Positions 1-62,885 of a stretch of DNA of 64,000 nt are shown piece after piece (the first letter of the stretch is position 1; the number at the start of each line of letters is the position of its first letter). The stretch covers positions 3,573,232 through 3,637,231 of the forward strand of contig JADJXR010000001.1 in assembly GCA_016710285.1 (NCBI GenBank). The letters run 5' to 3'. The DNA comes from Chlorobiota bacterium (GTDB lineage Bacteria; Bacteroidota; Ignavibacteria; OLB7). The notes beneath the pieces were generated by a model. The model made no database searches. It saw only the letters and a list, made by a program, of their open reading frames with translations, and was not told the origin of the DNA. The translations under genes were made by a program, and so were the position numbers.

Positions 1-12
1 GCTTCGCGGCCA

Positions 13-3991: not shown

Positions 3992-4089
3992 TTGCTGCAA
4001 TCACATCGGCCCCGCACGCCGTTCGCTGCGGGGCCGGTGCACATCTCTTGCTTGTCACGACTCTCTCTCTCTCTCCTTCCAACAGATCA

Positions 4090-4608: not shown

Positions 4609-4612
4609 CTCC

Positions 4613-9888: not shown

Positions 9889-9971
9889 GACGAAAATCTT
9901 TTCTGGAAGAAACACCAACGCCGATGCAGCATCCTGCATCGGCGTTGTGTTCTGGATGGTGAACCAGCGCG

Positions 9972-19685: not shown

Positions 19686-19706
19686 TCACCAACAATCAAA
19701 CAACAA

Positions 19707-20624
19707 ATGAACCGGTATAAACTCGCCTTGCTATTTCTGCTGCTTGCACTCCTTTTTCCCATCGGGATTCCGGCACAGACCGACACCGCCGTAAAAGTGC
19801 TGCTTGTGAACGCCCATCCCGACGATGAATCTGGATGCGCCGCCACCGTGTATAAAATCACTCACGACCTGAAAGGAGTTGTGGACCTTGCCGTGATAAC
19901 CAACGGCGAAGCAGGCTACAAATACTCAACCCTTGCCGAATCAATTTATGGGATGGAGTTGACGGAGGAGGCCGTTGGTCGGGAATTTTTGCCGACAATT
20001 CGGAAACGCGAACTGATGAACGGCGGCAAGTGGGTCGGCATCCGTAATTATTATTTTATGGAGCAGAAGGACACCCGCTATTCAACCGACCCGTCGGAGG
20101 TAATGAATACTGGAGTGTGGAACCTTGCGCAAGTAAAACAGCGATTAACGGAAATCATTCTTCGCGAACGGTACGATTATATTTTTTGCTTGCTTCCAAC
20201 CGATGGAACACATGGCCACCATAAATCAGCAACAATTTTGGCATTGCAGACAGTCCAAGAATTGCCAGCGGAACAACGCCCGGTGGTGCTTGGCGTTTCC
20301 GACTCGACAAAAGGGGACACCGCTGCAACCCGATTTTCCATGCTGGCAAAATACCCCGAAACAAAAATCAGCAGTGGCAAGCCAAGTTTCTTTTTTGATA
20401 GAACCGTGAAGTTCGGATTTAAAAACGCGCTGGATTATAAAATCGTTGTGAATTGGCTGATTGCCGAACATAAATCACAAGGAACCATGCAAACCGGAAT
20501 GAGCAGGGGAGACATTGAGCAATTCTGGTTTTTCGACATCAACGATCCAGCAAAAATGGAGGAAACAAAGCAGATGTTTGAGCGATTGAAGCCAATCCCT
20601 TTCCCGAAAAAAGAATACAAGTAA
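19707..20624 (+). CDS. Secreted PIG-L/LmbE-family N-acetylglucosaminyl deacetylase
   Basis: Signal peptide. Hallmark VLLVNAHPDDESGCAA motif and HxxH (GTHGHHKSA). Confidence 0.75.
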   Translation: MNRYKLALLFLLLALLFPIGIPAQTDTAVKVLLVNAHPDDESGCAATVYKITHDLKGVVDLAVITNGEAGYKYSTLAESIYGMELTEEAVGREFLPTIRKRELMNGGKWVGIRNYYFMEQKDTRYSTDPSEVMNTGVWNLAQVKQRLTEIILRERYDYIFCLLPTDGTHGHHKSATILALQTVQELPAEQRPVVLGVSDSTKGDTAATRFSMLAKYPETKISSGKPSFFFDRTVKFGFKNALDYKIVVNWLIAEHKSQGTMQTGMSRGDIEQFWFFDINDPAKMEETKQMFERLKPIPFPKKEYK

Positions 20625-20638
20625 CCAAACTGCGCATT

Positions 20639-22558
20639 TCAACGTGGCGGAAGTTGAGCTGGCGGGGGCAATGCCGGAAGAAAAAAGTATTCCCCGCCAA
20701 GCTGCTCGGCCAATCGAACCGCGTCGGAGTTCTGGCTGAATCGTTCGCGGGTGTCAATCACCACCGAACGCACCCCCGCGCGGCGATACGCTTCCCCAAT
20801 TTTTTGCATCTCCTCCTGCACCGTTTTGCGGCGCACTTCGCGGATCATTGCTGCGGATCCTGGCTCCAGCGGGACGTTGGCGCGCCCGTCGGTTAGGATC
20901 ACCACCAATGCTTGCTCGTTCCCCCGAATCCGCTCCCGCTCGGCAATCGAAAGGGCCATCACCAGCGATGAACCCAACGGAGTTCCGCCGCCGGTTGGCA
21001 TCCGGTCCAGCGAACGCTTTGCCCGCTCGACGGAGCTTGTTGGGGGGAGCAGAAGCTCGGCCTGGCTTCCCCGGAATCCAATCATCGCCACGCGGTCGCG
21101 GCTGATGTAGGCGGTTTGCAAAATTCTTCCTGCCACCCCTTTTGCCTCGCGGATTCGGTTGGTTGCCATGGATCCGCTGCTGTCAACGCAGAAAATGAAC
21201 AGCGTTCCGGCACGCTCGGAGAACTCCTTGATTCGCAGGTCGCCCTTTCGGATTCGTATCCAATCTCCATCCCCGCTCCTTCTGGATTGCTGGTGCGGGG
21301 CCGCTGCGCGAAGGGTTGATAGAAGGTCAATCCGCCTTCCGGCAAGCTCCCCCTCGGTTGTGCGGACGTGCCGCCCACGCAGCACCTGTTTGCGCGTCCC
21401 CCGCTTCCCCGATTCCAGCCCCAGGGCCTGCTGGAAAAACGCCAGCAGTGGCGGTATCGGCGCGGTGAAATCAATCGGGTCGAACAGCTGCTCGGCCCCG
21501 GTTTGCGATTCGCCGATCGTGCTTGCCTCCTCGGTTGGTTGCTCATCTTGCCTCCCTTCGGCTTGCTCGCCTTCCCCTTCGGCCTCGGTTTCGCTGGCCG
21601 CAGCTTCGCTGGTTGGCGCGGTTCCGCTTTGCTGGATTGGTGGCTCCTCCGCTTCCGGTTGCTGGGGGCCGGGCTGGGTTGGGTCCGGGATGTTTTGGGT
21701 GCGCGGAGCAAGCACCGTGGCGATTGCAAAGCTCACATCGGCTTCCTCAACCACCATGGATTGGCGAAGTGCCGCGTGCGCCCGCGCAGCTTTTGCCGCA
21801 AAGATCAGCCCCCGCTGGCCGGCCACCTGCAACGCCGCCGCCGCTTCTATCAATTGCTCGATTGCAAGATCGCCGACTCGAACCCGGGGCCAGCTAAGGC
21901 GGGCGTTCAGCACCTGCTCGGCAATGCGTTGCTCATGCCCGGAATATCGCTGGGTGGTCTGCTGTGGCGATGCCGCGAACTCCTGGCGCAGCCGCAGCAA
22001 TCGCCCTACGTGCTCGGCTGGAAGCCTCCGCTCTTGAGCGATAAGAAAGGGGATTTTGTCGGCAAGGGCTTGTTGGATTGGGCGTTCGGAAGGGACCGCG
22101 GTTGCCAGCAGGGAGAAGCGTGCGGGGAAGAACTGGCCAAATCCTTCGCGCTGGCAATTCACCATTCCGGAATCCAACGCTTGGCCAATCGTGGCGGCGG
22201 TTGCGGGGTCCAGAAGCGGAAGATTATCAACGATGAGTATGCCGCCATTGGCCGCCGGAAGTATCCCGGGTTGCAGCACGGGCGTGCCGTGGGCGATTGT
22301 TGCATCAAAGTCAATCCCGCCAATCAGGCGGTCGTGGGTGATGCCCAACGGCAGGCGGGCAACGGGCATTTGGGGATCAATCTGGGCCAGAACAAACTGG
22401 CTGAAACTGGAAAGGAGTTGCGATTTGCCAACGCCCACCGGCCCAGAGATCACCACCCCGCAGAGCGTTGGATCCACCAGCGTGCACAGCAATGCCCGCC
22501 GCGCCATTCCGTACCCAAGAAACGCGCTGAATGGAAGGGAATACAAGGAGTGGAGCAA
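20639..22558 (-). CDS. Magnesium-chelatase subunit D (BchD/ChlD)-family protein: degenerate AAA+ N-domain, Pro/acidic linker, C-terminal vWA
   Basis: N-terminal LPFSAFLGYGMARRALLCTLVDPTLCGVVISGPVGVGKS, an acidic proline-rich linker, and a vWA domain with the MIDAS motif DSSGSM. Confidence 0.7.
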   Translation of the reverse strand: MLHSLYSLPFSAFLGYGMARRALLCTLVDPTLCGVVISGPVGVGKSQLLSSFSQFVLAQIDPQMPVARLPLGITHDRLIGGIDFDATIAHGTPVLQPGILPAANGGILIVDNLPLLDPATAATIGQALDSGMVNCQREGFGQFFPARFSLLATAVPSERPIQQALADKIPFLIAQERRLPAEHVGRLLRLRQEFAASPQQTTQRYSGHEQRIAEQVLNARLSWPRVRVGDLAIEQLIEAAAALQVAGQRGLIFAAKAARAHAALRQSMVVEEADVSFAIATVLAPRTQNIPDPTQPGPQQPEAEEPPIQQSGTAPTSEAAASETEAEGEGEQAEGRQDEQPTEEASTIGESQTGAEQLFDPIDFTAPIPPLLAFFQQALGLESGKRGTRKQVLRGRHVRTTEGELAGRRIDLLSTLRAAAPHQQSRRSGDGDWIRIRKGDLRIKEFSERAGTLFIFCVDSSGSMATNRIREAKGVAGRILQTAYISRDRVAMIGFRGSQAELLLPPTSSVERAKRSLDRMPTGGGTPLGSSLVMALSIAERERIRGNEQALVVILTDGRANVPLEPGSAAMIREVRRKTVQEEMQKIGEAYRRAGVRSVVIDTRERFSQNSDAVRLAEQLGGEYFFLPALPPPAQLPPR

Positions 22559-48357: not shown

Positions 48358-48796
48358 CAGGGGAATCACACAGGTGAACAACAGCGGAACCATCCTTCTT
48401 CAAAAGCGATTTTTCACCGACAAGGGGGAACTATCGTTGCTTCTGCGCGAGCTTGAGCGGCTGCGCCCGCAGATGCCGCTTAGCAACGACCAGTTCCACA
48501 ACTTGGTGATTGCCATGACCGAAGCGGTCAACAACGCGATTGTTCACGGCAACCAGTTGGACCCCTCCAAATCGGTCTTCTACCAAATCTCCGCAACCGA
48601 GGATGGAGTTTTTTGCACGATTGAAGATGAGGGGGAAGGCTTCACGCTGGAAGACCTTGCCAACCCCATCAGCCCCGAAAATCTGTTGATGGAAAGCGGG
48701 CGCGGGATGTTCATTATCGGCGCGCTGATGCGGGACCTGAAGGCGGTGAAAACCGAGCGCGGGATGCGGGTGGAGTTCCTGTGTGCCGCAGGGTGA
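48338..48796 (+). CDS. RsbW-like anti-sigma regulatory factor / serine-protein kinase (HATPase_c_2)
   Basis: Conserved N-box AVNNAIVHGN and G-box IEDEGEGF...GRGMFII. Confidence 0.55.
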   Translation: MPDFNFSRGITQVNNSGTILLQKRFFTDKGELSLLLRELERLRPQMPLSNDQFHNLVIAMTEAVNNAIVHGNQLDPSKSVFYQISATEDGVFCTIEDEGEGFTLEDLANPISPENLLMESGRGMFIIGALMRDLKAVKTERGMRVEFLCAAG

Positions 48797-48833
48797 GCTT
48801 CCATATCCCACCGCTCCCCGTGGCGCATCAACG

Positions 48834-50188
48834 ATGATGAACTCACCCTCTTCACCTCCTTTTTTGTGGGTTGGCGGCGCGGTCTTGCTTGCACTTGCGC
48901 CGCTTCCATGGTTGGGGGATTTGCGCGCAGAGTTCTGGAGCTATCTGGCCTTGATGCTTCTATCAACGGTGCTGCTTGGGGTTGGCTGCTGGCTGGGCTT
49001 CAGGGGAAGGGGCGGGGACCTTCCGATTCGCCACATTCTGCTGGTTGCCGGGCTGCTTCGCCTGGCCATGCTTCCCATGATGCCTTCCCTTTCCGACGAT
49101 GCCTACCGCTACGTGTGGGATGGGCGGCTGCTTCTTCACGGAGAAAACCCGTACCACGTCACCCCCACGGAAACAGCCTGGAGGGATGAGCTGTTCCAGC
49201 TTCAAGGCTACCCCACCACTCACACGATTTATCCCCCCGCCGCACAGCTTCTGTTTGCCGCCGCCGCTGCCGTTGGTGAATTTTTTGGAGGGGCTTGGCA
49301 ATGGAGTTTCCTTGCTTGGAAGTTGATGGTGATCGCTGCCGATCTGTTGGCGGTGTACTTGCTGCTGCGGCTGCTTCGCGCGCAAGGGGTTCCGCTGGTG
49401 CGGGGGGTGATGTATGCTTGGCATCCGTTGGTGGTGGTGGAGCTTGCGGGCCAGGGCCATACCGACGCGTTGTGGGTGTTGGCAATCGCGCTTGGGCTGT
49501 GGGGGTTCGCTTCCGGGGGGGCGGGGAAGGGGTTGCCGGCGGTGGTGGTTGGGGGCGCGGCGCGGGTGTTTCCGCTTGTTGTTGCTCCGCTTTGGTTCCG
49601 TTTTTTGCCGCGCCGTCAGCTTCTTGTTGCGGTTGCTTGCGCGGCGTGCGGCGCGCTTCTGTTTGCGCCGTTTCTGACCCCGTGTCGGTGGAGAATTATG
49701 TTCGGGTGATGCTCCGGTTCACCAATTACTACGAGTTCAACGGGGGGGCATATCAAGCGGTGAAATGGGTGTTCGATGAACTCCATCTTCAGCCATCGAA
49801 CAGGATAGCGGGGGGGATATTGTTAGGGGTGCAGCTTGCTGCGTTTGGCCTTCTTTGGTTGCTTCCGGTTGCCGAGCGGTCGGTGCGTTCGCTTGCGTGG
49901 CGGATGTTGCTGCTGCTCAGTTTCCAGATCGTGCTTCCGGCAAAGGTCCATGTGTGGTATTTCGTTGCCCCGCTGTTCCTGCTCCCGATAACGTGGGGGC
50001 GCGGGCTGCGTTGGGGGTGGTGGTGGCTTTGCGCCGTTGCCCCGCTGACCTACTTCGCCTACTCTGGCTTGGCGGTTCGCGAGCCAACGTGGCTGCTGGC
50101 CGTTGAGTGGGGCGGCTTCGCGCTGCTGGTGCTGGCCGAACAAATGCGCCGAAGCGCCGGTAGCCGTCCCGACCTGCGTCGGGATTGA
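48834..50188 (+). CDS. GT87/DUF2029-like integral-membrane glycosyltransferase, apparently frameshifted near 49668-49680
   Basis: DDAYRYVWDGRLLLHGENPYHVTP motif in frame with 48834. The C-half (VSVENYVRVMLRFTNYYEFNG...) is in ORF 49295..50188 in another frame. The junction is at the cccc run in ctgaccccgtg. The last 10 codons and the stop lie inside the first repeat unit. Confidence 0.55.
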
Positions 50189-51010
50189 TAAAAGGTCTTT
50201 AGCCTTCGGTGTGTCGTCACTGGGCCCCGATAAAGATCGAGGCCGCTACCCCGACAGAGTCAGGGCTGCTAGCGCAGTGGTAGCCGTCCCGACCTGCGTC
50301 GGGATTGATAAAAGGTCTTTAGCCTTCGGTGTGTCGTCACAGGGCAGGCTAAAGACCTGCCGCTACCCCGACAGAGTCGGGGCTGGCGGTGGAACAGGTA
50401 GCCGTCCCGACATACGTCGGGATTGATAAAAGGTCTTTAGCCTTCGGCGTGTCGTCACAGGGCAGGCTAAAGACCTGCCGCTACCCCGACAGAGTCGGGG
50501 CTGGCGGTGGAACAGGTAGCCGTCCCGACATACGTCGGGATTGATAAAAGGTCTTTAGCCTTCGGCGACTCACTCTTGAGAAAGACAGGGCAGGCTAAAG
50601 ACCTGCCGCTACCCCGACAGAGTCGGGCTGGTGGTGAGACAGGTAGCCGTCCCGACCTGCGTCGGGATTGATGTCAGGCTGGCGATGGAACAGGTAGCCG
50701 AAGGTCTTTAGCCTTCGGCGTGTCGTCACAGGGCAGGCTAAAGACCTGCCGCTACCCCGACAGAGTTGGGCTGGCGATGGAACAGGTAACCGTCCCGACA
50801 TACGTCGGGATTGATAAAAGGTCTTTAGCCTTCGGCGTGTCGTCACTGGGCAGGCTAAAGACCTGTCGCTACCCCGATAGAGTTGGGCTGGCGGTGGAAC
50901 AGGTAGCCGTCCCGACATACGTCGGGATTGATAAAAGGTCTTTAGCCTTCGGCGTCATCCTCGCAAGAAAGACAGGGCAGGCTAAAGACCTGTCGCTACC
51001 CCGACTGGGT
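50160..51010. repeat. Tandem array of about eight copies of a roughly 118-bp GC-rich multi-hairpin repeat
   Basis: Units start at about 50161, 50281, 50399, 50517, 50644 (partial), 50693 (partial), 50786 and 50903. Each carries TCCCGAC-NNNN-GTCGGGA, AGGTCTTTAGCCT...AGGCTAAAGACCT and CCCCGAC-AGA-GTCGGGG palindromes. Confidence 0.85.
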
Positions 51011-51039
51011 TAGAGTAGATCGGCGCACCTGCAAACAAC

Positions 51040-51066
51040 AAGGCCCAGCCAATAATGGCCGGGCCT
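51040..51066 (-). terminator. Terminator-like hairpin for the minus-strand lipoprotein gene
   Basis: AAGGCCCGGCC-ATTATT-GGCTGGGCCTT followed by GUUGUUUG when read on the minus strand. Confidence 0.45.
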
Positions 51067-51106
51067 TTGTTCTAAAAAAAACTTTGCGATGCTGTTGGCT
51101 GCGCAA

Positions 51107-51559
51107 TTACGGGTTGCGGCGGACGCTTGATTCCTGCGAGCTGCTGTTGCTGCTGCTTGGCGTGCGGCGGACGCTTGATTCTTGCGAGCTGTTGGTGCTT
51201 CCACCGCGGCGAACTTCCGATTCTTTTGCGGTGTTCTGCCCCGGGCGGCGTGTTTCCGATTCGGCTGGCTTATTCTCCGAAGGCTTCGCGGTGGATTTTG
51301 CTGCCGCGCCCTTGTCTTTGTCGCCGTGATCGTGGCCATCGTGGTCATCATGCTTCATCGCTGCCGAGTCAGGCTTCATTGCGGAGTCGGCCTTCGCGGT
51401 GTCCATCGGGGTTGGCGTTGGCATTGGTGCGGGGGCTGGCATGGTCATCGTGTCTTTCTTTGTGGTGTCGGTTGCCGGTGGCTCTTCCGACTTTTTGCCG
51501 CAGGCCACAAACGTCAGTGTGGTAAGGGCCAGGGTTAGGATAATCGAGCGTGTTTTCAT
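51107..51559 (-). CDS. Small lipoprotein with a His/Asp-rich segment and C-terminal tandem repeats
   Basis: Lipobox LTFVACGKK. AMKHDDHDGHDHGDKDK. C-terminal ...SSQESSVRR... repeated, encoded by tandem roughly 54-bp DNA repeats at 51110-51220. Confidence 0.45.
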   Translation of the reverse strand: MKTRSIILTLALTTLTFVACGKKSEEPPATDTTKKDTMTMPAPAPMPTPTPMDTAKADSAMKPDSAAMKHDDHDGHDHGDKDKGAAAKSTAKPSENKPAESETRRPGQNTAKESEVRRGGSTNSSQESSVRRTPSSSNSSSQESSVRRNP

Positions 51560-51774
51560 GGTTGGTTGTTCGGATAAACTTGAATGGTTGGATGCTTCTT
51601 GCATAAGCCGCCGCAAAGATAGCAGATGCAAAGCGAAGTGCTGTGAGGAATTTTCGCGCCCGAAGATTAACCGTGGGATCAACCCCACCCTGAACCCCTT
51701 CTCGCCTAACGTTCTGCTACATATTCCCCCTGCGTAACGGCGTGCGTCGCGGGCTATATTTGCAGCCCGCAAAC

Positions 51775-51848
51775 GGGGTTATGGCACAGTTGGTTAGCGC
51801 GCTTCCTTGACATGGAAGAGGTCACAGGTTCGAGTCCTGTTAACCCCA
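51775..51848 (+). tRNA. tRNA-Val (anticodon GAC)
   Basis: Acceptor GGGGTTA/TAACCCC, D-arm GCACAGTTGGTTAGCGC, anticodon stem CTTCC/GGAAG with loop TTGACAT, T-arm CAGGTTCGAGTCCTG. Confidence 0.88.
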
Positions 51849-51850
51849 CA

Positions 51851-51892
51851 AACAACGGCGATTCCGCAAATGGAGTCGCCGTTGTTTTTTTT
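51851..51892 (+). terminator. Rho-independent terminator after tRNA-Val
   Basis: AACGGCGA-TTCCGCAAATGGAG-TCGCCGTT stem followed by T8. Confidence 0.7.
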
Positions 51893-51962
51893 GATGGTGG
51901 AATCATTCTTTCCGCTGTGGAAGGGGGAAGGAATGCGTAATCTTTCCGGTATCCAAGCCGAT

Positions 51963-52875
51963 ATCATCAAGAAGGTAGCCGCCCCGACCTCCGTCGGGAT
52001 TGATAAAAGGTCTTTAGCCTTCGGTGTTCAGGCCGCGTTGGCTCCGTGCGTTGCTCCCCCTCTTGGGAGGGGCTGGGGGGTGGGTTTGGGGACACCCGCG
52101 AACCGGGTGTTGCTTTCCCGAATCTCAGGATCAGAAACTTCCCGTGCCACCGCAACCCCCGCGCCCTGCATTGCTTCCCCCGAACCCACCCCGCCCTATC
52201 GGGCACCCCTCCGTTGGAGGGGGACTACTTGTGAGGGTTCGGAGAAAACTCGCGGACGGGCTTGTGGGCGGCTCCCCCTCTTGGGAGGGGGCTAGGGGGT
52301 GGGTTTGGGGACACCCGCGAACCGAGCGTTGCTTTCCGAATCTCAGGATCAGGCAGGGCGGGGTAGTCGCAGGTCTTTAGCCTGCGCGGGGACACCCGCG
52401 AACCGGGCATTGCTTCCCGAATCTCAGGATCAGAAACTTCCCGTGCCACTGCAACCCCCGCGCCCTGCATTGCTTCCCCCGAACCCACCCCGCCCTATCG
52501 GGCACCCCTCCGTTGGAGGGGGACTACTTGTGAGGGTTCGGAGAAAACTCGCGGACGGGCTTGTGGGCGGCTCCCCCTCTTGGGAGGGGGCTAGGGGGTG
52601 GGTTTGGGGACACCCGCGAACCGAGCGTTGCTTTCCGAATCTCAGGATCAGGCAGGGCGGGGTAGTCGCAGGTCTTTAGCCTGCGCGGGGACACCCGCGA
52701 ACCGGGCATTGCTTCCCGAATCTCAGGATCAGAAACTTCCCGTGCCACTGCAACCCCCGCGCCCTGCATTGCTTCCCCCGAACCCACCCCGCCCTATCGG
52801 GCACCCCTCCGTTGGAGGGGGACTACTTGTGAGGGTTCGGAGAAAACTCGCGGGCGGGCTTTGTCAGACTTTCAG
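51963..52875. repeat. One family-1 partial unit followed by about 2.8 tandem copies of a roughly 299-bp composite GC-rich repeat
   Basis: Exact 299-bp periodicity: identical ORFs 52225..52488 and 52524..52787, and 52299..52679 versus 52598..52888. Internal palindromes CCCCTCTTGGGAGGGGG and CCCCTCCGTTGGAGGGGG. Twice-per-unit motif GGGGACACCCGCGAACCG...TCCGAATCTCAGGATCAG. Also contains GCAGGTCTTTAGCCTGC. Confidence 0.8.
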
Positions 52876-53502
52876 TTTCAAAAAATAAAGGTCGTTGATG
52901 TTATCCCACAAAAAAACATGGTCTTGTTTAAGTGAAAGGTCTGGTCCGTATGGTCTTTCTGTTTTATACCGTAGGATAGTTCCTGATTTATATTCTTTGC
53001 CGTGTCGAAAATCAAAATCTGATGTGTCTGGCGAATAGTTGCCCTGGTTGTAATAATGTGAATGATCTGTTGCAAGAATAAAATAGCAAAGGTCAATGCC
53101 ATGATCTTTGTATAATTCAAGGTTTGAAATGTCCTTGAATACATCATAACGATTATTAGGTTCTCGGTGATTCTCTTTCTTGAAAAACTTTAGTTCAAAA
53201 GCTGCTTTCGTTACAGTGCTATTGTCTTGGTAGCTTATCAGTATATCCACTCTTGCTCTGTCGGATTTGCTTTTTATGCTTGCTTCGTTGAGTGAAACGT
53301 ATGTCTCGAATTCAAGGTGAAATTTGTCAGCAAGTCTAAATTCATACAACCGCCCCAAAGTTTTTAGGATGTGTCCAAATTCAAGTTGAAAAGCATTTTC
53401 ATTTCTTGCTGTCAGCCCGCCAAAAGCAAGTTTATGAGTCAGGAGCTTGTATGCTGTCTCAATAATTTCTTCTGTCAGTCTAATTTGGTTTTCTTTTAGC
53501 AT
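52864..53502 (-). CDS. Hypothetical protein with a PD-(D/E)xK-like motif
   Basis: Low-GC codon usage. Segments FQLEFGHIL ... RVDILISYQDNSTVTKAAFELKFFK fit an E...D...ExK restriction-endonuclease-like pattern. Confidence 0.35.
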   Translation of the reverse strand: MLKENQIRLTEEIIETAYKLLTHKLAFGGLTARNENAFQLEFGHILKTLGRLYEFRLADKFHLEFETYVSLNEASIKSKSDRARVDILISYQDNSTVTKAAFELKFFKKENHREPNNRYDVFKDISNLELYKDHGIDLCYFILATDHSHYYNQGNYSPDTSDFDFRHGKEYKSGTILRYKTERPYGPDLSLKQDHVFLWDNINDLYFLKLKV

Positions 53503-53597
53503 TTATCAGGACGATGGTGCTTTATTCTCAACGCAAATGCGTTTTTTATTTTCAAGAACAGCAAGTGAGAGAAGGTCTTTAGTCTTCGGTTGTAAAA

Positions 53598-54089
53598 TCA
53601 GACCCCATGGTTAGCAACATTGTTTGTGATTTCGCTGGGGAGCAAGCTGTGCAAGTCAAACAACGGGAGGATAAGATTGGCGAAAGGAGTATTGGCAAGT
53701 TTGCTAAGTAGCAAACCTCGTGTGGTTCCTACAGATGCGCTGGTCATCGTCGCAGCAATCCATCCGGGAATTTCAATATTTCCCCCTGATTCCTTTAGGC
53801 CATGGATCTGATACTTGGAATTGGTTGTGATTGATGCCAGCATCCCTGATTTTGATTTTTTGTGTCCTTCCCATGAAATTTCTACAGAGATGATGAGCGT
53901 GGATGTCGCACCAGTAGCAGCATTAATACTACGCCGCACAGTGATGGCATAATGAATTCCACTGATCTCAGCTGGATCCGGATTGGAAATCTCGAATGTC
54001 TCAACGGAGCAGTCAGCAAAAACAAGGCCGATTGGGGGCGCGGCGGGGGGAGCATCTCCATTTTTAGAGCGAGAGTTTTTCTTGGCCAT
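53598..54089 (-). CDS. Hypothetical protein (163 aa), no recognisable domain
   Basis: ORF in the AT-rich island, co-directional with the TA genes. Low-complexity N-terminus. Confidence 0.3.
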   Translation of the reverse strand: MAKKNSRSKNGDAPPAAPPIGLVFADCSVETFEISNPDPAEISGIHYAITVRRSINAATGATSTLIISVEISWEGHKKSKSGMLASITTNSKYQIHGLKESGGNIEIPGWIAATMTSASVGTTRGLLLSKLANTPFANLILPLFDLHSLLPSEITNNVANHGV

Positions 54090-54564
54090 AGCTCTGCGAT
54101 TTTTGAGTTTTTGAAGAGATCATTTCGTTAGAATTATTAACGACAAGGGTTCCGAACTCATTGACGCTTTGTGAGCTTAGATGGAATGATTCAGAAGAAG
54201 AGAGCGGGGTGTTTGTCTTCCCGTAGGTGATAATGGTGGTTATGGAGCCATCACTATTTTTTAGTTTTTCAATCTGCCTGGTAAACGCTGTTGAGGCCAC
54301 GGCTTCGGGGAAATTTTGAGCTACTTCCAGCAACCGCCGCGCCGGTCCTTTTGGGCGGCGGCGGCCTTGTTCCCAGCCTTCAAGGGTGCGCTGGCTAATG
54401 CCCAGCATCAGCGCAAATTTTGCTTGGGACATCCCCATTTTGTTCCGAATCTCCTTCGCATCAGGAATTTGGTAGTAGGTAATGCGCGATGGCTGCTTTT
54501 TGCCTGCGCGTATCTCCTGCAAGTCGGAAAGTGCATGTTCCAACGATGTCAATAAGCTATCCAT
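54064..54564 (-). CDS. HTH (XRE-like) antitoxin, HigA-2/NadS-like
   Basis: IRNKMGMSQAKFALMLGISQRTLEGWEQGRRRPKGPARRLLEVAQNFPE matches antitoxins paired with Gp49/HigB-2-type toxins. It overlaps the toxin-like ORF by 8 nt. Confidence 0.6.
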   Translation of the reverse strand: MDSLLTSLEHALSDLQEIRAGKKQPSRITYYQIPDAKEIRNKMGMSQAKFALMLGISQRTLEGWEQGRRRPKGPARRLLEVAQNFPEAVASTAFTRQIEKLKNSDGSITTIITYGKTNTPLSSSESFHLSSQSVNEFGTLVVNNSNEMISSKTQKSQSYGQEKLSL

Positions 54565-54757
54565 GAAGATTTTTAATAATGGTTTGAAGGATGGTTATTT
54601 CTTCTCTTGTGAGGTCGCTTTTCTGCCGCTTGCTGTATGCCGCAATCAGGTAGATATCCCCTTGTCTGCTCCGATAGTAGTAGATCACCCTTGCACCGCC
54701 ACGTTTGCCCCCTTTATGTTGCTCCGTTAATGCCTCAAAGATAGCATGGTGTTTCAC
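54557..54757 (-). CDS. RelE/ParE-superfamily (Gp49/HigB-2-like) toxin, N-terminally short (66 aa, GTG start, in-frame stop immediately upstream)
   Basis: GGARVIYYYRSRQGDIYLIAAYSKRQKSDLTREEITILQTIIKNL matches the conserved C-terminal half of HigB-2/Gp49-like toxins. Confidence 0.5.
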   Translation of the reverse strand: MKHHAIFEALTEQHKGGKRGGARVIYYYRSRQGDIYLIAAYSKRQKSDLTREEITILQTIIKNLHG

Positions 54758-54845
54758 TAGTCAGAGAGGAAATGATTCCTTCCGTTGATTCCGTGATCCC
54801 ACCAAGTTGCTCCGCACCAACTTCATCCCTATGTTTGGCCCGCCG

Positions 54846-56915
54846 ATGAACGATCTACCAAACTCTCAACCCGCCAGCAACGCTCCAGAACCGGAGCCGC
54901 TGGAGCTTCCCCTTTCCTTGCAGGATAAGCTGAACAACCTTCCGCCGGACCCGGGGGTGTACCAGTATTTCGACCGCGACGGGAAGGTGATCTACGTTGG
55001 CAAGGCCAAAAACCTGCGCAACCGCGTCCGCAGCTACTTCCAGCAGGGCCGCCCGCACGACGCAAAAACCCGCGCACTGGTGGCGAAAATTGCCGACCTG
55101 CAGACCATCGTCACCGACTCCGCCGTCGAGGCCCTAATCCTTGAAGACACCCTGATTAAAAAACTGCGGCCACGCTACAACATCCTGCTGAAGGATGATA
55201 AAACGTACCCGTACATCCGCGTCACCAACGAGCCGTTCCCCCGCGTGTTCAGCACCCGAACCCGGGTCCGCGACGGCAGCCGCTACTTCGGTCCCTTCAC
55301 CGATGTGAAGTATGTCCGCTACTTGCTGAAAACCCTTCGCTCAATCTTCCCAATCCGCTCCTGCGACCTTACGTTGAACGATGAAACGATTGCCGCCGGC
55401 AAGTTCAAGGTCTGTTTGGATTTCCACATCGGGAAATGCCAAGGGCCATGCGAAGGATTGGTAAGCCAAGCCGACTACCGCGAAATGATCCGCCAAGTGA
55501 TGCAGGTCCTGAACGGAAAAACCCGCGAACTTGAACGCACCCTTGAGCTTGACATGGGCCACCTTGCCGAAGCGATGCGGTTCGAGGAAGCCGCCGCCAT
55601 GCGGAACCGTTTGCAGAAACTGCGCGAGTACAGCGGCAAGCAAAAAGTCGTCAGCGAGGACCTTACCGACCGCGACATCATTGCCTGCGTTGCCGAGGAC
55701 GACGACGCTTGCGCGGTGATCTTCCGCGTGCGCGACGGGCGGATGGTGGGGCGGCAGCACCATTACCTGAGCGGCGTGCTGCAGATGCCGCAGCCGGAAA
55801 TCCTCCGGAACGTTATCGAACGCCATTACTCCACCGCCGAGTCTATCCCCGAAGAATTGCTTCTGCCGATTGAGTTGGAGGACGATGGCGAGCTGATTGA
55901 GCGATTCCTAACCGACCGCCGCGCCGAAGGGAAGGTCCGGCTGGCGGTGCCGAAAATTGGCGACAAGCAGAAGCTGGTGGCAATGGCCCAGACGAACGCA
56001 AAGTTCCTGCTGGATGAGCTGAAGTTGCAGCGAATGAAACGGAGCGACATGGTCCCGCGCCCCGTGCAAAGCCTGCAGCGCGACTTGGGCCTGAAGAAAC
56101 CGCCGCGCCGGATTGAGTGCTTCGACAACTCCAATATCCAGGGGACCGACCCGGTTTCCTCCATGGTCTGCTTTGTGGACGGCCAGCCGCGCCGAAGCGA
56201 GTACCGGAAGTTCAACGTGAAAACCGTTGTTGGCCCGAACGATTTCGAGACGATGCGCGAGGTTGTTGGCCGCCGCTACCGCCGCGTGCTGAACGAAGGC
56301 CTTGCGCTTCCGGACCTGATTGTGATTGACGGCGGGAAAGGGCAGGTGGGGGCGGCAATGGAGGTGCTTCAGCAGCTGAACCTTGAGCATATCCCCCTGA
56401 TTGGATTGGCCAAACGATTGGAGGAAGTGGTGGTCCCGGGCCAGCGCGACACGTTGCTGTTGCCCCGTTCCTCCAGCAGCCTTCGGCTTCTGCAGCAAAT
56501 CCGCGACGAGGCTCACCGCTTTGCCATCACCTTCCACCGGACGCTTCGGAACCGGCGCACCTTGCAGACCGAGCTAACGAACGTCCCAGGAATCGGCACG
56601 AAAACGGCGCAAAAAATTTTTGAGACGTTCGGCTCCGTTCGCGGGGTCATTGCGGCCTCGTTGCAGGAATTGCAGCAGGTGCTGGGCCCCAAAACGGGGC
56701 AAGCCTTGCACGAGTACTTCCAGGCCAAAGCCGCCGCGCTCTCCGCCGCCGCCGCCGAAGAAGGCCCCGCAACCGACGAGCAAGAAGACGACATCCAACT
56801 GATGAGCGACGACGGCCAATTGGAGGGGGATGAAGAAATGGAGCGCGATGAAGAACGCAACGGAGATGCGGAGGAAGAGCCGGAAGAGTTCGCCGGGGAA
56901 GGGGAATTGGAGTAG
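54846..56915 (+). CDS. uvrC: Excinuclease ABC subunit C with an unusual acidic C-terminal tail
   Basis: GIY-YIG (GVYQYFDRDGKVIYVGKAKNLRNR), UvrBC-interaction region, RNaseH-like endonuclease domain, (HhH)2, then about 70 aa of D/E-rich tail. Confidence 0.9.
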   Translation: MNDLPNSQPASNAPEPEPLELPLSLQDKLNNLPPDPGVYQYFDRDGKVIYVGKAKNLRNRVRSYFQQGRPHDAKTRALVAKIADLQTIVTDSAVEALILEDTLIKKLRPRYNILLKDDKTYPYIRVTNEPFPRVFSTRTRVRDGSRYFGPFTDVKYVRYLLKTLRSIFPIRSCDLTLNDETIAAGKFKVCLDFHIGKCQGPCEGLVSQADYREMIRQVMQVLNGKTRELERTLELDMGHLAEAMRFEEAAAMRNRLQKLREYSGKQKVVSEDLTDRDIIACVAEDDDACAVIFRVRDGRMVGRQHHYLSGVLQMPQPEILRNVIERHYSTAESIPEELLLPIELEDDGELIERFLTDRRAEGKVRLAVPKIGDKQKLVAMAQTNAKFLLDELKLQRMKRSDMVPRPVQSLQRDLGLKKPPRRIECFDNSNIQGTDPVSSMVCFVDGQPRRSEYRKFNVKTVVGPNDFETMREVVGRRYRRVLNEGLALPDLIVIDGGKGQVGAAMEVLQQLNLEHIPLIGLAKRLEEVVVPGQRDTLLLPRSSSSLRLLQQIRDEAHRFAITFHRTLRNRRTLQTELTNVPGIGTKTAQKIFETFGSVRGVIAASLQELQQVLGPKTGQALHEYFQAKAAALSAAAAEEGPATDEQEDDIQLMSDDGQLEGDEEMERDEERNGDAEEEPEEFAGEGELE

Positions 56916-56935
56916 CTGACGGAGAAGGGAGCAAG

Positions 56936-57195
56936 TGAAGGTAGCCGTCCCAATTGAATCGGGGCGGTGTGATCTTCGTTCTTCGTGCGTTGGCCCCGTG
57001 CGTTGCTCCCCCTCTTGGGAGGGGGTTGGGGGGTGGGTTGGGGACACACGCGAAACAGCGTCCCTTTCCGAATCTCAGGACCAGAGCCTTCCGCGGTCAG
57101 CGCGAACCGCCGCCCGTTCGGTGGTTCCCCCGAACCCACCCCGCCCTGTCGGGCACCCCTCCGTGGGAGGGGAATGCTTCGGGGGGGGGCGGAGG
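56936..57195. repeat. Partial copy of repeat family 1 (GGTAGCCGTCCC) fused to a family-2 unit
   Basis: GTTGCTCCCCCTCTTGGGAGGGGG...GGGACACACGCGAAACAG...TCCGAATCTCAGGACCAG...CCCCCGAACCCACCCCGCCCTGTCGGGCACCCCTCCGTGGGAGGGG. Confidence 0.7.
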
Positions 57196-57275
57196 TAGGA
57201 TGGCGCGGCACAGATCAGCAACATGATAGCGAATCAACACATCAAAAACTCAACAACAGACCGAACCATTTCCAC

Positions 57276-58475
57276 ATGAGCAGTTTTCAGATTGGCGACA
57301 TCTTCCTGTTCCCCCTTCGCGACCGGATGTACGGCGTTGGGAAATTCGTGATGGAGCATAACCTTGCGTTGCAGCACAGCTACATGATTGCCGTCTATGA
57401 CCGGGTGATCGAGCTGGACCCGGCAGTTCTGAACGACCTGTATGCCCCCTTGCCCGACATCAGCCACGAGCTGAACGGCATTGAGCAAGAAGAAGCATTG
57501 GTCAACACCGTGATGCTGACCGCAATCGGCATCCGCGCCACCGAGGTCCACGTGGTTGCCCATGCCGACATCCACGAAAGCGACCGCGACGGATACCTGA
57601 CCTGGCTCTACGTCAAAAAATATGAGGCCCTGCAGAAAGGCTTGATTAAAGAAGAAGAGGAGGCCGCAGCCGAGGAAGAAACAACCGAGGAGGAAGGGGA
57701 GGAGATGGAGCAAGCAGAGATGGAGCAACCGGAAATGGAAGGAACCGAAGGGGAAGAAGATGCTGGGCCAGAGCCTGAATCGAGCAATGCAAACATTGTG
57801 GAGGACCAGCGCCAAACCGCCGCTGCGGCAACCATCCCGGCCCCGGCCGAGCCGAAAAAACCGTTGACGATGGTCCCGATTCTTTCACCCACCGGCGAGG
57901 TTCTTCGCGAGGTTCGGATCCGGTTGTGGCATCTGCATGTTTTTGAGGTAAGCGTGGGGGAGGCGTTGTTCGGGATGTACAAAAATTTCATGATGCCGGA
58001 GCTTGCCAGCACACGGATTGGGGCCTACATCATTGCCCACTACGACCACCGCAACGTTGGCCGCGTTCGCCAGCTTGCCGACGCACTTGTTGAAGGGGAT
58101 TTCGGCGCGGGGCACGAACTGATTGAGTTCGGCGACACCGCCGCCCAGGTGCTGGCATTGAAACTGAAAGAACCGCTGGAGCCGGAGGTGATGGGGGATG
58201 TACTACAGATTCTGGGCGACATCGGGGTGGACCGCGGCTACGACCTGATTGCGGCGTTTGTAGCAGAGCATGGCATGGACGAATCGGGCCGATACTACGC
58301 CCAAGCGTGGCGCGGGTACTGCAACGCCGTGGTGAACACCGGCGGCGATTCCGCACCGTTGCAGCCATACCTTCCCCAGCTGAAAACCATCACCCACCCG
58401 GAACTCCGCAGCGATATCCGAATCGCCCTGGAGTCAGTAACCAACAAAGCGGTGGAAGGGGCGGTGGATGGGTGA
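57276..58475 (+). CDS. Hypothetical protein with a central acidic linker
   Basis: Start at MSSFQIGDIFLF. An E-rich linker separates two domains. No family recognised. The longer ORF upstream reads through the repeat and is disregarded. Confidence 0.4.
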   Translation: MSSFQIGDIFLFPLRDRMYGVGKFVMEHNLALQHSYMIAVYDRVIELDPAVLNDLYAPLPDISHELNGIEQEEALVNTVMLTAIGIRATEVHVVAHADIHESDRDGYLTWLYVKKYEALQKGLIKEEEEAAAEEETTEEEGEEMEQAEMEQPEMEGTEGEEDAGPEPESSNANIVEDQRQTAAAATIPAPAEPKKPLTMVPILSPTGEVLREVRIRLWHLHVFEVSVGEALFGMYKNFMMPELASTRIGAYIIAHYDHRNVGRVRQLADALVEGDFGAGHELIEFGDTAAQVLALKLKEPLEPEVMGDVLQILGDIGVDRGYDLIAAFVAEHGMDESGRYYAQAWRGYCNAVVNTGGDSAPLQPYLPQLKTITHPELRSDIRIALESVTNKAVEGAVDG

Positions 58476-59490: not shown

Positions 59491-62124
59491 ATGAAACGTT
59501 CTCTCTACTTCCTTGCCATCCTGATCGCCATGATCGTTTGGCCTTCGTCTTCTGGGAAGGCGCAGGTGAAGGATTCCGTCTATGTAATTGAGCAGTTGGG
59601 GCTGAATCCTTACGAGTGCTGCTACGGGTTCATCCTGCAAAGCCGCCAGCCCAAAGGGACCAAGATTGATGAGTTCCGCGTGCGGATTATTGAAGGGGAT
59701 GGCAAGTTCCTTACCGGCCAGTCCAGTTCCCCGTTTCGGTGGCTGGTGTTCCAGGATTACGACAGCGTGCGCTGGCTGACCAGCACCGCTTCGGCCGAGC
59801 TTGACAGCGGCCAGATTGCGCAAGGCTTCAACGTCTGCGCCCGCAACGTTGGCGTGTTGGTGATGGTGTGGGAGACGCGCTATCTGGAGGAGGTCCGCAG
59901 CCGCGACACCATCCGCGTTGTTTGCACGGGGCGCACCGGTTGCGACGAACCGTTCTTCCGCCCAATCCCCAGCGGATCCATTTGCGCGTTTGATGTTGAC
60001 CTTATTGCTGGCAACCCAGAGCAGCGTGTCGTCAACGATTTCCATGTTCGGGTTGCAAGCGGCGGGGTGGCATTCAACACCGCGGCGATTGCTTCGCAGG
60101 GGCGGCAGCCTGCCGGGTGGACGCGCTTCAAAACCAAAGCGGACACGCTTAGCTGGCGAACCATCAACAACGGCTTGACGCAGCCGCAGTTCGCCGAAGG
60201 GTTCCGATTCTTCTTGGATGTACAGCCCGATTCCGCAATCATCATTGAATGGTGGACAACGAACTTCGGCGAAGTTCTTTGCCGTGGGTTCGACACCTTA
60301 GTCTGCGGGCTGCAGGCGCCCGACAGCATCCAGTTCAGCCGCGTTCCGGTCAATGGAGATAGCTGTTGCTTGGACCTGCAGATGCGGAACACCCACAAAC
60401 CAAAGTCGAAGTTGAATGGCTTTGCTGTGAAGATCACCACTCCCAAAGCACGCTTTAGCGGAAGCCCAATTCCCCCAGCCGGGTGGTCAACCGCCGGGGC
60501 CAATGCCGCCGGGGACTCCATCTATTTTTCCACGGCGAACGGGCTGGCTCCCAATCTTGCAGCCTTGTTCAGGGGGGTCTGCTTCGATAACAACCTCTCC
60601 AGCACCGACACCGTGCGGTTCCAGGTGGAGACATTCAGCAGCGGGATCAGCGTCACGAAAGGGACGGGATCGCTCTACTGCCAGCGGAAGCTGGTTTTCT
60701 GCGACAGCATCAGCGCGACGGTGGATTCCACCTATCCATCGGCGGTTCGCTGCATCCGGTTTGCGGTGAACAACACCAATTCCCGAAGTGATGAGATTGA
60801 GAGAGTGGTGATGCGGTTCCGCAATGCTGGCACGCCGCGCCGGGTGGTGGCGGCATCGGGACCGGCTGGGTGGCAGGTGGCGTTCGGGGGGGATTCGGCG
60901 GTCTTCTTCGGCAACATTGTTTACCCGGGGGAACGCCTCCCTGGGTTCAGCGCGTGCTTGACGTTGGGAGACAGCACAACGAAGGACCCGCTTGGCATCT
61001 ACTGGGAGACCTCCAACACCACGCGGAGCATCTGCCGGGACACGATCAAGGTGAATGCCATTATCACCCGTGGGTGCGATAACATCAGCGCGACCGAGCT
61101 TCCGGCAACCGAGCCGCAGATTGCTTGCTTCAAGGTTTCGCTGAACGCAGCCAACCAGTTCAACAAACCGGTGACGCGGTTTACGATTGCCATCCCGGGC
61201 ACGAAGACCATCTTCACCAATGCCACAACGCCAAGCGGGTGGAAGTTGGTGGACGATGCGTTCCCATTGTTCGATCTTGATTTTGCCGACGGGAATTTGC
61301 CAATCGGCGGAACCGTGGCCACCGATGTCTGCTTTAACGTCTCGCAGCTTGGCAAGCCGCCGCTGGCAATCCCGGTGGTCTGGACAACCTACAGCGGAAC
61401 AACGCTGATCTGCCAGGACACCTTGCGAATCGCCTATCAGGGGAATCAGGTGGACCCGGTGTGTGACACGATCACCATTGCCAACACCGCAACGGACCCT
61501 GAGCAGGGGAAATGCACGTATGCGATTACCATCAAGAATCGGCACAACAATCCAACCGGTCCAATCAATGGATTCCGCGTGAAGGTTACGGGGGGGAAGG
61601 GAGGCTTTGCCGCTGCCGATGCGGCAGGGGGGGGATGGACAGCAACGGTGGGGCGTAGCGAAGTTCAGTTTAGCGGAGGAGTGATTCCTGCTGGTGAGGA
61701 ACGAAGCAGCTTCACCGTGGTGATAGATTCCAGCGACGGCAACCCGGTTCGCATCGAGGCCGTTGCCTTGACTGACGGCACCCCACGTTGCGCAACCCAG
61801 CTGACGGTTTCCTGCCAGCCGCCAACAACGGATGCTCCGTTGGCCGGCGAAGAACCCGCAGGGAAATGGCTAAGCGTCACCCCGAACCCCGTTGCCCACA
61901 CAATGGCGGTGGAATACCGCTGGCCAGCGGCTGGAAGGCTGGCCCTCCGTCTTCGCGATGCCACAGGGGCAACGGTTTTGCAGGAATCGGCGGTGGTGTT
62001 GGCTCCTGGGTCGTCATCGCGGTTGCAGCTTTCCACAACCGAACTTCCTTCCGGCATCTACTATCTCAGCCTTGACGACGGGCGCGCCCCGGCAATAACC
62101 CAGCGGGTGGTTGTGGTTCGGTAA
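59491..62124 (+). CDS. Secreted protein with four internal roughly 150-aa repeats and a T9SS C-terminal sorting domain
   Basis: Signal peptide. Repeated modules each carrying GF(R/A)VK(I/V)T...P(A/S)GW and Cys pairs. C-terminal Por tail (LSVTPNPVAHTMAVEYRW...SGIYYLSLDDG...VVVVR). Confidence 0.6.
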   Translation: MKRSLYFLAILIAMIVWPSSSGKAQVKDSVYVIEQLGLNPYECCYGFILQSRQPKGTKIDEFRVRIIEGDGKFLTGQSSSPFRWLVFQDYDSVRWLTSTASAELDSGQIAQGFNVCARNVGVLVMVWETRYLEEVRSRDTIRVVCTGRTGCDEPFFRPIPSGSICAFDVDLIAGNPEQRVVNDFHVRVASGGVAFNTAAIASQGRQPAGWTRFKTKADTLSWRTINNGLTQPQFAEGFRFFLDVQPDSAIIIEWWTTNFGEVLCRGFDTLVCGLQAPDSIQFSRVPVNGDSCCLDLQMRNTHKPKSKLNGFAVKITTPKARFSGSPIPPAGWSTAGANAAGDSIYFSTANGLAPNLAALFRGVCFDNNLSSTDTVRFQVETFSSGISVTKGTGSLYCQRKLVFCDSISATVDSTYPSAVRCIRFAVNNTNSRSDEIERVVMRFRNAGTPRRVVAASGPAGWQVAFGGDSAVFFGNIVYPGERLPGFSACLTLGDSTTKDPLGIYWETSNTTRSICRDTIKVNAIITRGCDNISATELPATEPQIACFKVSLNAANQFNKPVTRFTIAIPGTKTIFTNATTPSGWKLVDDAFPLFDLDFADGNLPIGGTVATDVCFNVSQLGKPPLAIPVVWTTYSGTTLICQDTLRIAYQGNQVDPVCDTITIANTATDPEQGKCTYAITIKNRHNNPTGPINGFRVKVTGGKGGFAAADAAGGGWTATVGRSEVQFSGGVIPAGEERSSFTVVIDSSDGNPVRIEAVALTDGTPRCATQLTVSCQPPTTDAPLAGEEPAGKWLSVTPNPVAHTMAVEYRWPAAGRLALRLRDATGATVLQESAVVLAPGSSSRLQLSTTELPSGIYYLSLDDGRAPAITQRVVVVR

Positions 62125-62144
62125 TCGTCGTGCATTGGCAGTTC

Positions 62145-62185
62145 AACGGGGCTACGGTCAGCAACCGTAGCCCCGTTGTATTGTG
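62145..62185 (+). terminator. Rho-independent terminator after the T9SS cargo gene
   Basis: AACGGGGCTACGG-TCAGCAA-CCGTAGCCCCGTT followed by a T-rich GTATTGTG. Confidence 0.5.
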
Positions 62186-62327
62186 AAGAGTTTATGTGTA
62201 CGATTCTCGGATGTTGTTGTAAAATCAAACAGCCATCAGATGAAAAAAAATCAACAGAAAACGCCGAAATTTGCTTAAAAAGAAGGATTCTGGATTGTCA
62301 AAAACTTCACCAGGGGTTAAAAAATCG

Positions 62328-62359
62328 TTGACAACAGGATTTCGGCCATAGTAGTTTTG
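62328..62359 (+). promoter_or_regulatory. Bacteroidota-type sigma-A-like promoter motif (TTG ... TAnnTTTG)
   Basis: TTGACAACAGGATTTCGGCCATAG-TAGTTTTG, with 21 nt between TTG and the -7 box. This is a motif match only. Confidence 0.2.
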
Positions 62360-62885
62360 TATGCTAAACGCACGAGCAAGAAACCACGTTAGTGGATGAT
62401 GAGGCTGGGAATTGGGGCAACTGGATATCGAATGTGTGGCTGAAGGCTTGGGGATACTGGAAGAATCCCCAATTTTTCGCGAAAATTGCAACACCGCCAT
62501 CCCATCCCTTCGTTGTTTCTTCGACTTTATCAAAATGACAGAGGCAGGATTGCGCTGCTAAATCACAGCGTACTCTTGTGAAGAATGGGGGGCTACGGCG
62601 TAGATATGGGCGATAATCAGCCACAATGGATGGCACAATGGGGAGCGAAAAGTAGTAGAACAGAAAGTCTGAGACACTTCTTTTCAAAAGCCGACAAGGT
62701 CTATACTTGGGTGGTCGAAATCCAGATTACAAGCATGGCACGGTAATTGATGTGATCTACGTGCAAGTCTTTACTGGGCTTGTTCAAGACGCACAACATC
62801 AATGGGCAATGCCAGTAGAAGAAGCGGCCCTCTGTCTCGGCAGCGTATGGCACCCATCGTAAGAAACAGACGGGAGAGCGATTAA

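Follow-up and report, generated by a model that had tools for sequence, protein, structure and literature searches.

A low-GC islet upstream of uvrC in the OLB7 lineage of Kapaibacteria probably combines a broken toxin-antitoxin-chaperone module with a predicted solitary nuclease gene

We analyzed a short low-GC islet that lies upstream of uvrC in a Chlorobiota bacterium of the OLB7 lineage, at positions 52876-54770 of a 64,000-nt stretch of contig JADJXR010000001.1 (hereafter called the window; coordinates refer to it unless another locus is named). Its GC content is 43.4%, that of the window 58.1%, and no other stretch of 1.9 kb in this DNA is as low, the deviation from non-overlapping windows amounting to z = -6.75. 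Four co-oriented open reading frames (ORFs) occupy the islet on the minus strand, as a preliminary description of the locus had correctly outlined: orf212 (52864-53502), orf163 (53598-54089), orf166 (54064-54564), and orf66 (54557-54757). The same description had reported that the GC content falls from about 62% to about 38%; the dip is real, but the lower value holds only for orf212 (36.5%) and not throughout, with orf163 (47.8%), orf166 (48.1%), and orf66 (45.3%) belonging to a part of the islet that differs from orf212 by 11 percentage points. It had also seen a toxin-antitoxin (TA) pair next to two unknown genes, a view that we revise: orf163 is instead predicted to encode a SecB-like chaperone as the third gene of a toxin-antitoxin-chaperone (TAC) module and orf212 appears to be a separate nuclease gene. 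The nuclease family is the sole truly unknown component of the islet.

Beside uvrC, the sister strain CHB2 (locus L001 on contig QWGY01000253.1) carries genes for a toxin (111 aa), an antitoxin (166 aa), a chaperone (162 aa), and an orf212 homologue (212 aa), and its uvrC segment is 96.8% identical to that of the window at the nucleotide level. Ratios of nonsynonymous to synonymous substitution rates (dN/dS) between the two strains are 0.08 for the antitoxin, 0.09 for uvrC, 0.09 for orf212, and 0.36 for the chaperone, which indicates that the islet genes are real. The exact islet proteins are also on record for "Chlorobi bacterium OLB7" and for a 4.35-Mb contig of a metagenome-assembled genome, where they are annotated as "hypothetical protein".

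The window and its sister strain differ most visibly at orf66. This 66-codon ORF matches only positions 50-100 of the 120 positions of the PF06296 model (HigB-2, RelE superfamily) and, with 25.9 bits, stays under the Pfam cut-off of 27. Alignment with CHB2 reveals that it is composed of the last 54 codons and the stop codon of a toxin gene (54557-54721, minus strand) fused in frame to 12 codons of former intergenic DNA (54722-54757, minus strand), which supply a GTG start and are preceded by an in-frame TGA two codons further upstream. The orthologue in CHB2 is an intact toxin of 111 aa that matches the structures of Vibrio cholerae HigB-2 over ~94 residues (E 9e-16) and Mycobacterium tuberculosis HigB1 weakly, and the toxin orthologue of a distant metagenomic locus (L004) exceeds the PF06296 cut-off with 30.2 bits. 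The preliminary description had therefore named the right toxin family, but what it took for a toxin gene is a short ORF that is mostly toxin-derived.

Alignment of the window with CHB2 and a further locus (L002) shows a single clean 305-bp deletion with GCAA microhomology at the junction (54719-54723). It took 57 of the 111 toxin codons together with ~134 bp of upstream DNA. Among the lost upstream DNA is a promoter-like palindrome, TTG(C/T)ATTCCATACGTCATTG(A/G)CGTATCATTGCA, which CHB2 shares with the distant locus L004 and which is therefore probably the operator. The decay that the preliminary description had suspected is thus visible as the loss of the promoter and the 5' half of the toxin gene. 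An assembly artefact was considered and rejected: the exact orf212 sequence is found on 23 contigs, and in 4 of these loci, which come from independent samples and include the OLB7 assembly, the annotation likewise places no toxin gene between uvrC and the antitoxin gene. The window locus is therefore a toxin-less antitoxin-chaperone ("AC") remnant in which the functional toxin gene of a TAC is missing.

The antitoxin gene, orf166, had rightly been recognized as XRE/HigA-like. Its product scores 66.8 bits against the NCBIfam model NadS (NF041265, cut-off 60) and matches Pfam HTH_3 with an E value of 2.3e-9. The NadS match covers only residues 3-88 (54301-54558), with the helix-turn-helix (HTH) at residues 37-72 (54349-54456), and leaves a C-terminal extension of ~70 aa (~54067-54282) outside the model. 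Such an extension was found in 4 out of 4 antitoxins linked to the chaperone family (166, 168, 171, and 206 aa), which run 70-110 aa past the HTH core in every linked locus. Two motifs of the extension, DGSxTxIITYG and SVNxFGxxVV, are conserved among the NadS-type antitoxins, and the residues T-Y114-G and E/Q-F137-G of orf166 fit the pattern of polar-aromatic-small motifs described for chaperone-addiction (ChAD) elements (bioRxiv 10.1101/2024.02.24.581848). By analogy, we regard the extension as a putative ChAD region. At its two ends, orf166 shares 26 nt with the chaperone gene and 8 nt with the toxin remnant.

No match to orf163 was obtained in family searches of Pfam, NCBIfam, and PHROGs, and a single-sequence search against the sequences of the PDB returned only noise and was discarded. 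PADLOC assigned the protein to PDC-M64C (E 3e-9; E 5e-11 for the L004 homologue). A word-indexed homologue search found 3 proteins, and an exhaustive profile search brought up 102 remote relatives of 140-180 aa, whose alignment was used to build an AlphaFold2 (AF2) model of orf163. The model is confident (predicted local distance difference test [pLDDT] of 90.7, predicted template modeling score of 0.82) and shows 4 long antiparallel strands, after which comes a long helix. Among PDB entries, the top 18 Foldseek matches are all either SecB (1ozb, 1fx3, 1qyn) or Rv1957, the TAC chaperone of M. tuberculosis, in complex with a ChAD peptide (5mtw), each with a probability of 1.00, target-normalized template modeling scores of 0.56-0.71, and 8-18% sequence identity. 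A SecB fold can therefore be predicted for orf163 with high confidence, and we place the protein in a divergent SecB-like clade outside Pfam SecB.

The genomic context of this clade points in the same direction. Relatives of orf163 at 27-58% identity form the third gene behind a toxin gene and the gene of an extended HTH antitoxin, and this order with overlapping genes recurs independently at L001/L002, L004/L005, L042, and L044. The tricistronic arrangement is intact in L001, L004, L042, and L044 and is also kept in the window, where the toxin gene is truncated. The distant metagenomic locus L004/L005 has toxin, antitoxin, and chaperone genes in another neighborhood and without orf212. L042 encodes a PF06296 toxin of 108 aa and an HTH_3 antitoxin of 206 aa and L044 a Gp49 toxin of 111 aa and an HTH_37 antitoxin of 171 aa, in both cases followed by an orf163 relative (31% and 27% identity, respectively) that overlaps the antitoxin gene by 26-41 nt. 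The different TA family at L044 would match the known modularity of TACs, which include HigBA, MqsRA, and HicAB units with ChAD extensions (PMC5105189, PMC6377645). Judged from these gene orders and the modeled fold, a toxin, an extended antitoxin, and a third protein with a predicted SecB fold make up a TAC module of a known kind.

Several observations weigh against this assignment. SecB ranks first for orf163 in a profile search of PDB sequences but only weakly so (E 0.13-0.19), and a profile alignment (hhalign) with E. coli SecB is weak as well (E 2.8e-4, probability 41%). The Pfam SecB model PF02556 does not match orf163 at E<=1, and at E<=0.01 it misses all 78 family members tested, so that the SecB assignment rests on predicted structure and gene context. 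Another remote relative, at L043, has no obvious TA context, and the dependence of orf166 on the chaperone for its stability and for neutralization of the toxin is inferred by analogy. It is therefore conceivable, if unlikely, that orf163 has a SecB-like fold and yet is no antitoxin chaperone but a sensor or adaptor with another mechanism. Besides the lack of Pfam matches and the low identity to SecB structures, the fast evolution of the protein would agree with such a role: between the sister strains, 23 of the 163 residues of the chaperone are changed (window 53598-54089 compared to L001 3423-3911), but only 3 of the 166 residues of the antitoxin. These changes cluster in residues 12-111, the C-terminal 50 residues being identical, and 21.5 of 25.5 nonsynonymous changes fall into residues 1-100, the beta-sheet half; counts are small, and we record this cluster without claiming that it proves positive selection. 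Against a role other than that of a chaperone stand the hallmarks of a TAC, namely the third position, the overlap with the antitoxin gene, and the extension of every linked antitoxin, as well as the presence of Rv1957, a bona fide TAC chaperone, among the best structural matches. Fast evolution is no contradiction either, given that the chaperone of known TACs itself senses phage (bioRxiv 10.1101/2024.02.24.581848); if true for orf163 as well, its rapidly changing beta-sheet half would fit the role of a sensor for phage proteins.

Compared to published TACs, the islet shares the co-oriented order of overlapping genes for toxin, antitoxin, and chaperone, a HigB-type toxin of the RelE superfamily, an HTH antitoxin with a long C-terminal extension and polar-aromatic-small motifs, a third protein with a predicted SecB fold, and a compositionally alien location. 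It differs from them in a chaperone clade that lies outside PF02556 and is only distantly related to solved SecB proteins (8-18% identity), in its host from the Kapaibacteria/Chlorobi group, in the pairing of a PF06296/HigB-2 toxin with a NadS antitoxin, and in the deletion of toxin and promoter. A previous survey had listed 49 TAC and 11 toxin-less AC systems, 34 of which were located in compositionally alien regions (PMC3581621). Like these AC loci of Sala et al. 2013, the islet has genes for an antitoxin and a SecB-like chaperone without a functional toxin, but how the AC state arose can be seen directly in this case, by comparison to a sister strain with a complete TAC from which the window differs by the 305-bp deletion. 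The full-length CHB2 toxin is also a clear homologue of the toxin of V. cholerae HigB-2/HigA-2 (PDB 5ja8, 5ja9, 5jaa). Unlike the TAC of the islet, the classical V. cholerae HigBA2 system has two genes and neither a ChAD extension nor a chaperone, and it became chaperone-dependent only after a ChAD had been grafted onto it experimentally (PMC5105189). The islet finally resembles the PADLOC candidate system PDC-M64 inasmuch as orf163 and its L004 homologue match the model of component C, but toxin and antitoxin do not match the models of components A or B; no publication describing PDC-M64 was found in a literature search.

By analogy to characterized systems, we infer biochemical activities, chaperone addiction, and phage sensing for this first cassette, which would be a tricistronic TAC of ~1.55 kb when intact, as in CHB2. 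The HigB-2-type toxin would cleave mRNA as a ribosome-dependent endonuclease, and the NadS/XRE antitoxin would neutralize it and repress the operon at the palindromic operator. An aggregation-prone extension would tie the antitoxin to the SecB-like chaperone, the product of the overlapping third gene. If this chaperone is titrated, e.g., by a phage (structural) protein, the toxin would be set free and the infection aborted. Microhomology-mediated deletion of 305 bp has left the genome of the window with a module that lacks its killing arm. The two remaining proteins, antitoxin and chaperone, may have been kept as an anti-addiction module, or their genes may simply be in decay.

The remaining gene, orf212, found no match in family searches of Pfam, NCBIfam, PADLOC, and PHROGs. 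Its AF2 model (pLDDT 91.9) displays the alpha-beta-beta-beta-alpha-beta core of PD-(D/E)xK nucleases, and the residues E66, D86, E103, and K105 are invariant. Its restriction-endonuclease-like core, in which strand 2 bears an aspartate and strand 3 an ExK motif, has the features of this superfamily, and we therefore predict orf212 to be a solitary PD-(D/E)xK nuclease. Around 600 homologues are nearly all exactly 212 aa long. Proteins with 72-83% identity are found in Chryseobacterium/Epilithonimonas, Flavobacterium, Acinetobacter, and Nafulsella, and DNA similarity across hosts spans the ORF from ATG to stop codon with unrelated flanks. The DNA identity of ~75-80% across phyla might be taken for recent transfer, but this idea was rejected: synonymous sites are saturated between phyla (proportion of synonymous differences [pS] of 0.65-0.98) at a dN of 0.10-0.18. 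Given this saturation, the similarity seems to reflect constraint on the protein together with a shared AT-rich codon choice. Sequence comparison thus portrays a family that is old, strongly constrained, and not very recently spread, and its GC content is below that of the surrounding locus in every case examined.

No DNA methyltransferase gene, as expected for a type II restriction-modification system, lies beside orf212 in any of the contexts examined, which comprise window/CHB2, Chryseobacterium/Epilithonimonas, Acinetobacter soli, L035, Flavobacterium, L040, and a Sphingobium plasmid. In Flavobacterium, the sole methyltransferase-like neighbor is a housekeeping-type MTS gene after rimM, and orf212 adjoins an integrase and a McrBC island there. 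In Chryseobacterium/Epilithonimonas (L006-L009, positions 1-5867), the orf212 homologue stands behind a pair of genes whose domains are ZorC/ZorD-like (EH_Signature; SNF2 and Mrr_cat) and behind an unannotated 516-aa gene. With a YhcG-type nuclease and an MmeI-like enzyme nearby, these loci form a dense defense island. Another context combines GmrSD with a type IIG enzyme, and others are an RteC-type region, gatCAB in Acinetobacter soli, and insertion sequence elements on the Sphingobium plasmid. A search of plasmids and phages with orf212 gave 2 weak matches on Sphingobium plasmids and none in phages, and viral contigs contain one relative of orf212 at 38% identity and no close relative of the chaperone. 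No particular vector of orf212 is supported by these results.

In size, core fold, and D...ExK residues, orf212 is similar to small type IIP enzymes (BamHI, OkrAI, BstYI, and BglII) and to stand-alone type IV nucleases, and like the type IIP and type IV restriction nucleases to which we liken it, it is often found in defense islands. The second cassette would accordingly be a single stand-alone PD-(D/E)xK nuclease gene of 639 bp without a methyltransferase partner, and its product would most plausibly be modification-dependent or otherwise self-limiting. A one-gene restriction-like (modification-dependent, type-IV-like) defense or selfish nuclease is most probably what this gene encodes, though this is the least secure of our assignments, and a role in defense is burdened by the fact that it rests on the neighborhoods of about 4 of the 7 contexts. 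More tentatively, orf212 could stand for an undescribed family of one-gene, methyltransferase-independent, restriction-like defense nucleases that travel as a bare ORF and favor defense islands, and, secondarily, the antitoxin-chaperone pair could serve as an anti-addiction or decoy module; we consider this possible but doubtful.

Taken together, we interpret the islet as two horizontally acquired cassettes, a broken TAC and orf212, which occupy a site ahead of uvrC that varies, in the OLB7/CHB2 lineage of Kapaibacteria, and give this reading a probability of roughly 80%. It builds on gene identities, predicted folds, and architecture, on the deletion, on the absence of the genes from relatives, and on composition. 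Horizontal acquisition had already been proposed by the preliminary description and stands: the four islet genes were found only in the strain of the window and in CHB2, and a search up to 10 kb from uvrC did not find them in 10 more Kapaibacteria-type genomes (UvrC 71-91% identical). Deviant composition and patchy distribution, the general signs of a horizontally acquired islet, are thus both present. TAC and orf212 were each found as separate units in unrelated genomes, and the TAC is low in GC in another host, too (47% compared to 56%). A scan for sigma-70-like promoters on the minus strand detected none that could drive the remnant, which says little in a lineage that may use other promoter types.

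The surroundings of uvrC look like a variable hotspot combined with a synteny break. Genes upstream of uvrC in the relatives are absent from the whole window, and homology with the nearest islet-free relatives begins only at 54830-54851, with the gene downstream of uvrC being syntenic (blastn). For this reason, uvrC most likely starts with the ATG at 54831 or 54846 and not with the TTG at 54807. DNA specific to the TAC ends near 54745, and the right border zone (54758-54830) consists of leftover spacer and the 5' region of uvrC. One relative (L010, UvrC 90% identical) carries a low-GC (~45%) ORF with an HsdS domain (PF01420) just upstream of uvrC (9216-9929 of that locus), so that this site is variable and defense-associated in another lineage as well.

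On its left side, the islet is bordered by a tandem array of a 299-bp repeat (52088-52861; 2.6 copies, 98-100% identical) that ends 2 nt from the stop codon of orf212 and is not counted in the imported DNA; public contigs of the window's strain break inside this array. Inside the islet, the 95-bp spacer from the orf163 stop codon to orf212 contains a 25-nt scrap of another host repeat of 118 bp (53566-53590, plus strand). It is identical to 52001-52025 at 22 of 25 bases, matches the core AAGGTCTTTAG[CT]CTTCGG of 10 other repeat copies with the same orientation in all of them, and is not present after the chaperone gene in L004. Because a piece of host repeat lies between orf163 and orf212, two separate insertion events are suggested.

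Among the alternatives for the origin of the islet, a remnant of an integrative element (island or prophage) targeted to tRNA-Val, with integrase and attachment sites decayed, appears improbable. The preliminary description had linked the islet to tRNA-Val(GAC), which indeed lies ~1 kb to its left (51775-51849), and the TA families have phage counterparts (phrog_5869, E 8e-26; phrog_2104, E 1.7e-22), just as orf212 of Flavobacterium is found beside an integrase and a McrBC island. However, no integrase or transposase ORF was detected within ~5 kb, where flanking ORFs had no Pfam matches, and no second copy of the 24-nt tRNA-Val 3' end occurs in the window even when up to 3 mismatches are allowed. 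The preliminary description had likewise seen no integrase or attachment repeat; integrase and tRNA-derived direct repeats, the signs of a tRNA-integrated island, are thus missing. Host repeat arrays stand between tRNA and islet, and viral contigs offer no more than the distant orf212 relative mentioned above. The preliminary description had also proposed to see whether uvrC directly follows tRNA-Val in related genomes: none of the uvrC loci of the 10 relatives carries a tRNA-Val at all or a tRNA of any kind upstream of uvrC, and different neighbors are found there instead, so that the link to the tRNA is unsupported.

It is even less probable that the region is ancestral and was lost from other relatives, its low GC content being due to gene-specific constraints. 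In favor of this view, the two closest strains share the islet and its location, purifying selection acts on all of its genes, and part of the low GC content is intrinsic to the orf212 family, which is AT-rich in every host. A survey of relatives for the same four genes had been suggested as a check of ancestry, and while they are present in CHB2, all of them are absent near uvrC from the 10 relatives, where upstream neighbors differ; furthermore, TAC and orf212 are separate in unrelated genomes and contexts, and the GC content deviates by -6.8 standard deviations. Equally slim are the chances that all four genes are one functional system resembling PDC-M64, in which HTH and SecB-fold proteins would regulate or guard orf212 as an effector: the genes are co-oriented and tightly packed in an order kept in both strains, without an obvious minus-strand terminator between orf163 and orf212, and orf163 matches PDC-M64C, but the TAC unit recurs without orf212 in L004, L005, L042, and L044, orf212 recurs without TAC genes in 6 other contexts, an 11-point GC gap and the repeat scrap separate the two parts, and toxin and antitoxin fail to match the other PDC-M64 models.

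Current concepts remain unchanged by these findings, and the islet is a typical small defense/addiction hotspot that is mostly ordinary. Recognition of orf163 extends TAC systems to the Kapaibacteria/Chlorobi group, and TAC surveys based on PF02556 would miss such systems, given that Pfam does not cover this SecB-like clade. The pair of OLB7 and CHB2 offers a clean natural example of the transition from TAC to AC by one deletion that removed promoter, operator, and half of the toxin gene. The orf212 family, in turn, is abundant, strongly constrained, and uncharacterized, which makes it a reasonable candidate for defense screens.

Some minor features of the surrounding DNA are worth recording. 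Partial copies of the 299-bp repeat lie at 52053-52134 and, downstream of uvrC, at 57005-57172. The latter is part of a segment (56836-57236) without counterpart in the relatives L010 and L011, which suggests a lineage-specific element similar to miniature inverted-repeat transposable elements. Members of the 118-bp repeat family are arranged in tandem at 50159-50955 (~6.5 copies; 72-100% identical to the reference copy by blastn), have an internal hairpin core (GGTCTTTAGCC...GGCTAAAGACC), and are dispersed as copies or fragments at 16307-16525, 51974-52027, and the aforementioned 53566-53590. An Rfam scan of 49500-57500 returned only the tRNA. Two more patches fall below 48% GC in 500-bp windows (~19100-20700 and ~62100-62800) and may be other acquired segments. 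Two long ORFs on the plus strand overlap in different frames at 48783-49709 and 49295-50188 without a Pfam match; either a membrane-protein gene has been frameshifted here, or the ORFs are spurious products of high GC content. UvrC itself ends in a strongly acidic tail of ~60 aa (DEQEDD...EEEPEEFAGEGELE; ~56730-56915), and the UvrC proteins of most relatives align only up to residue ~625-663.

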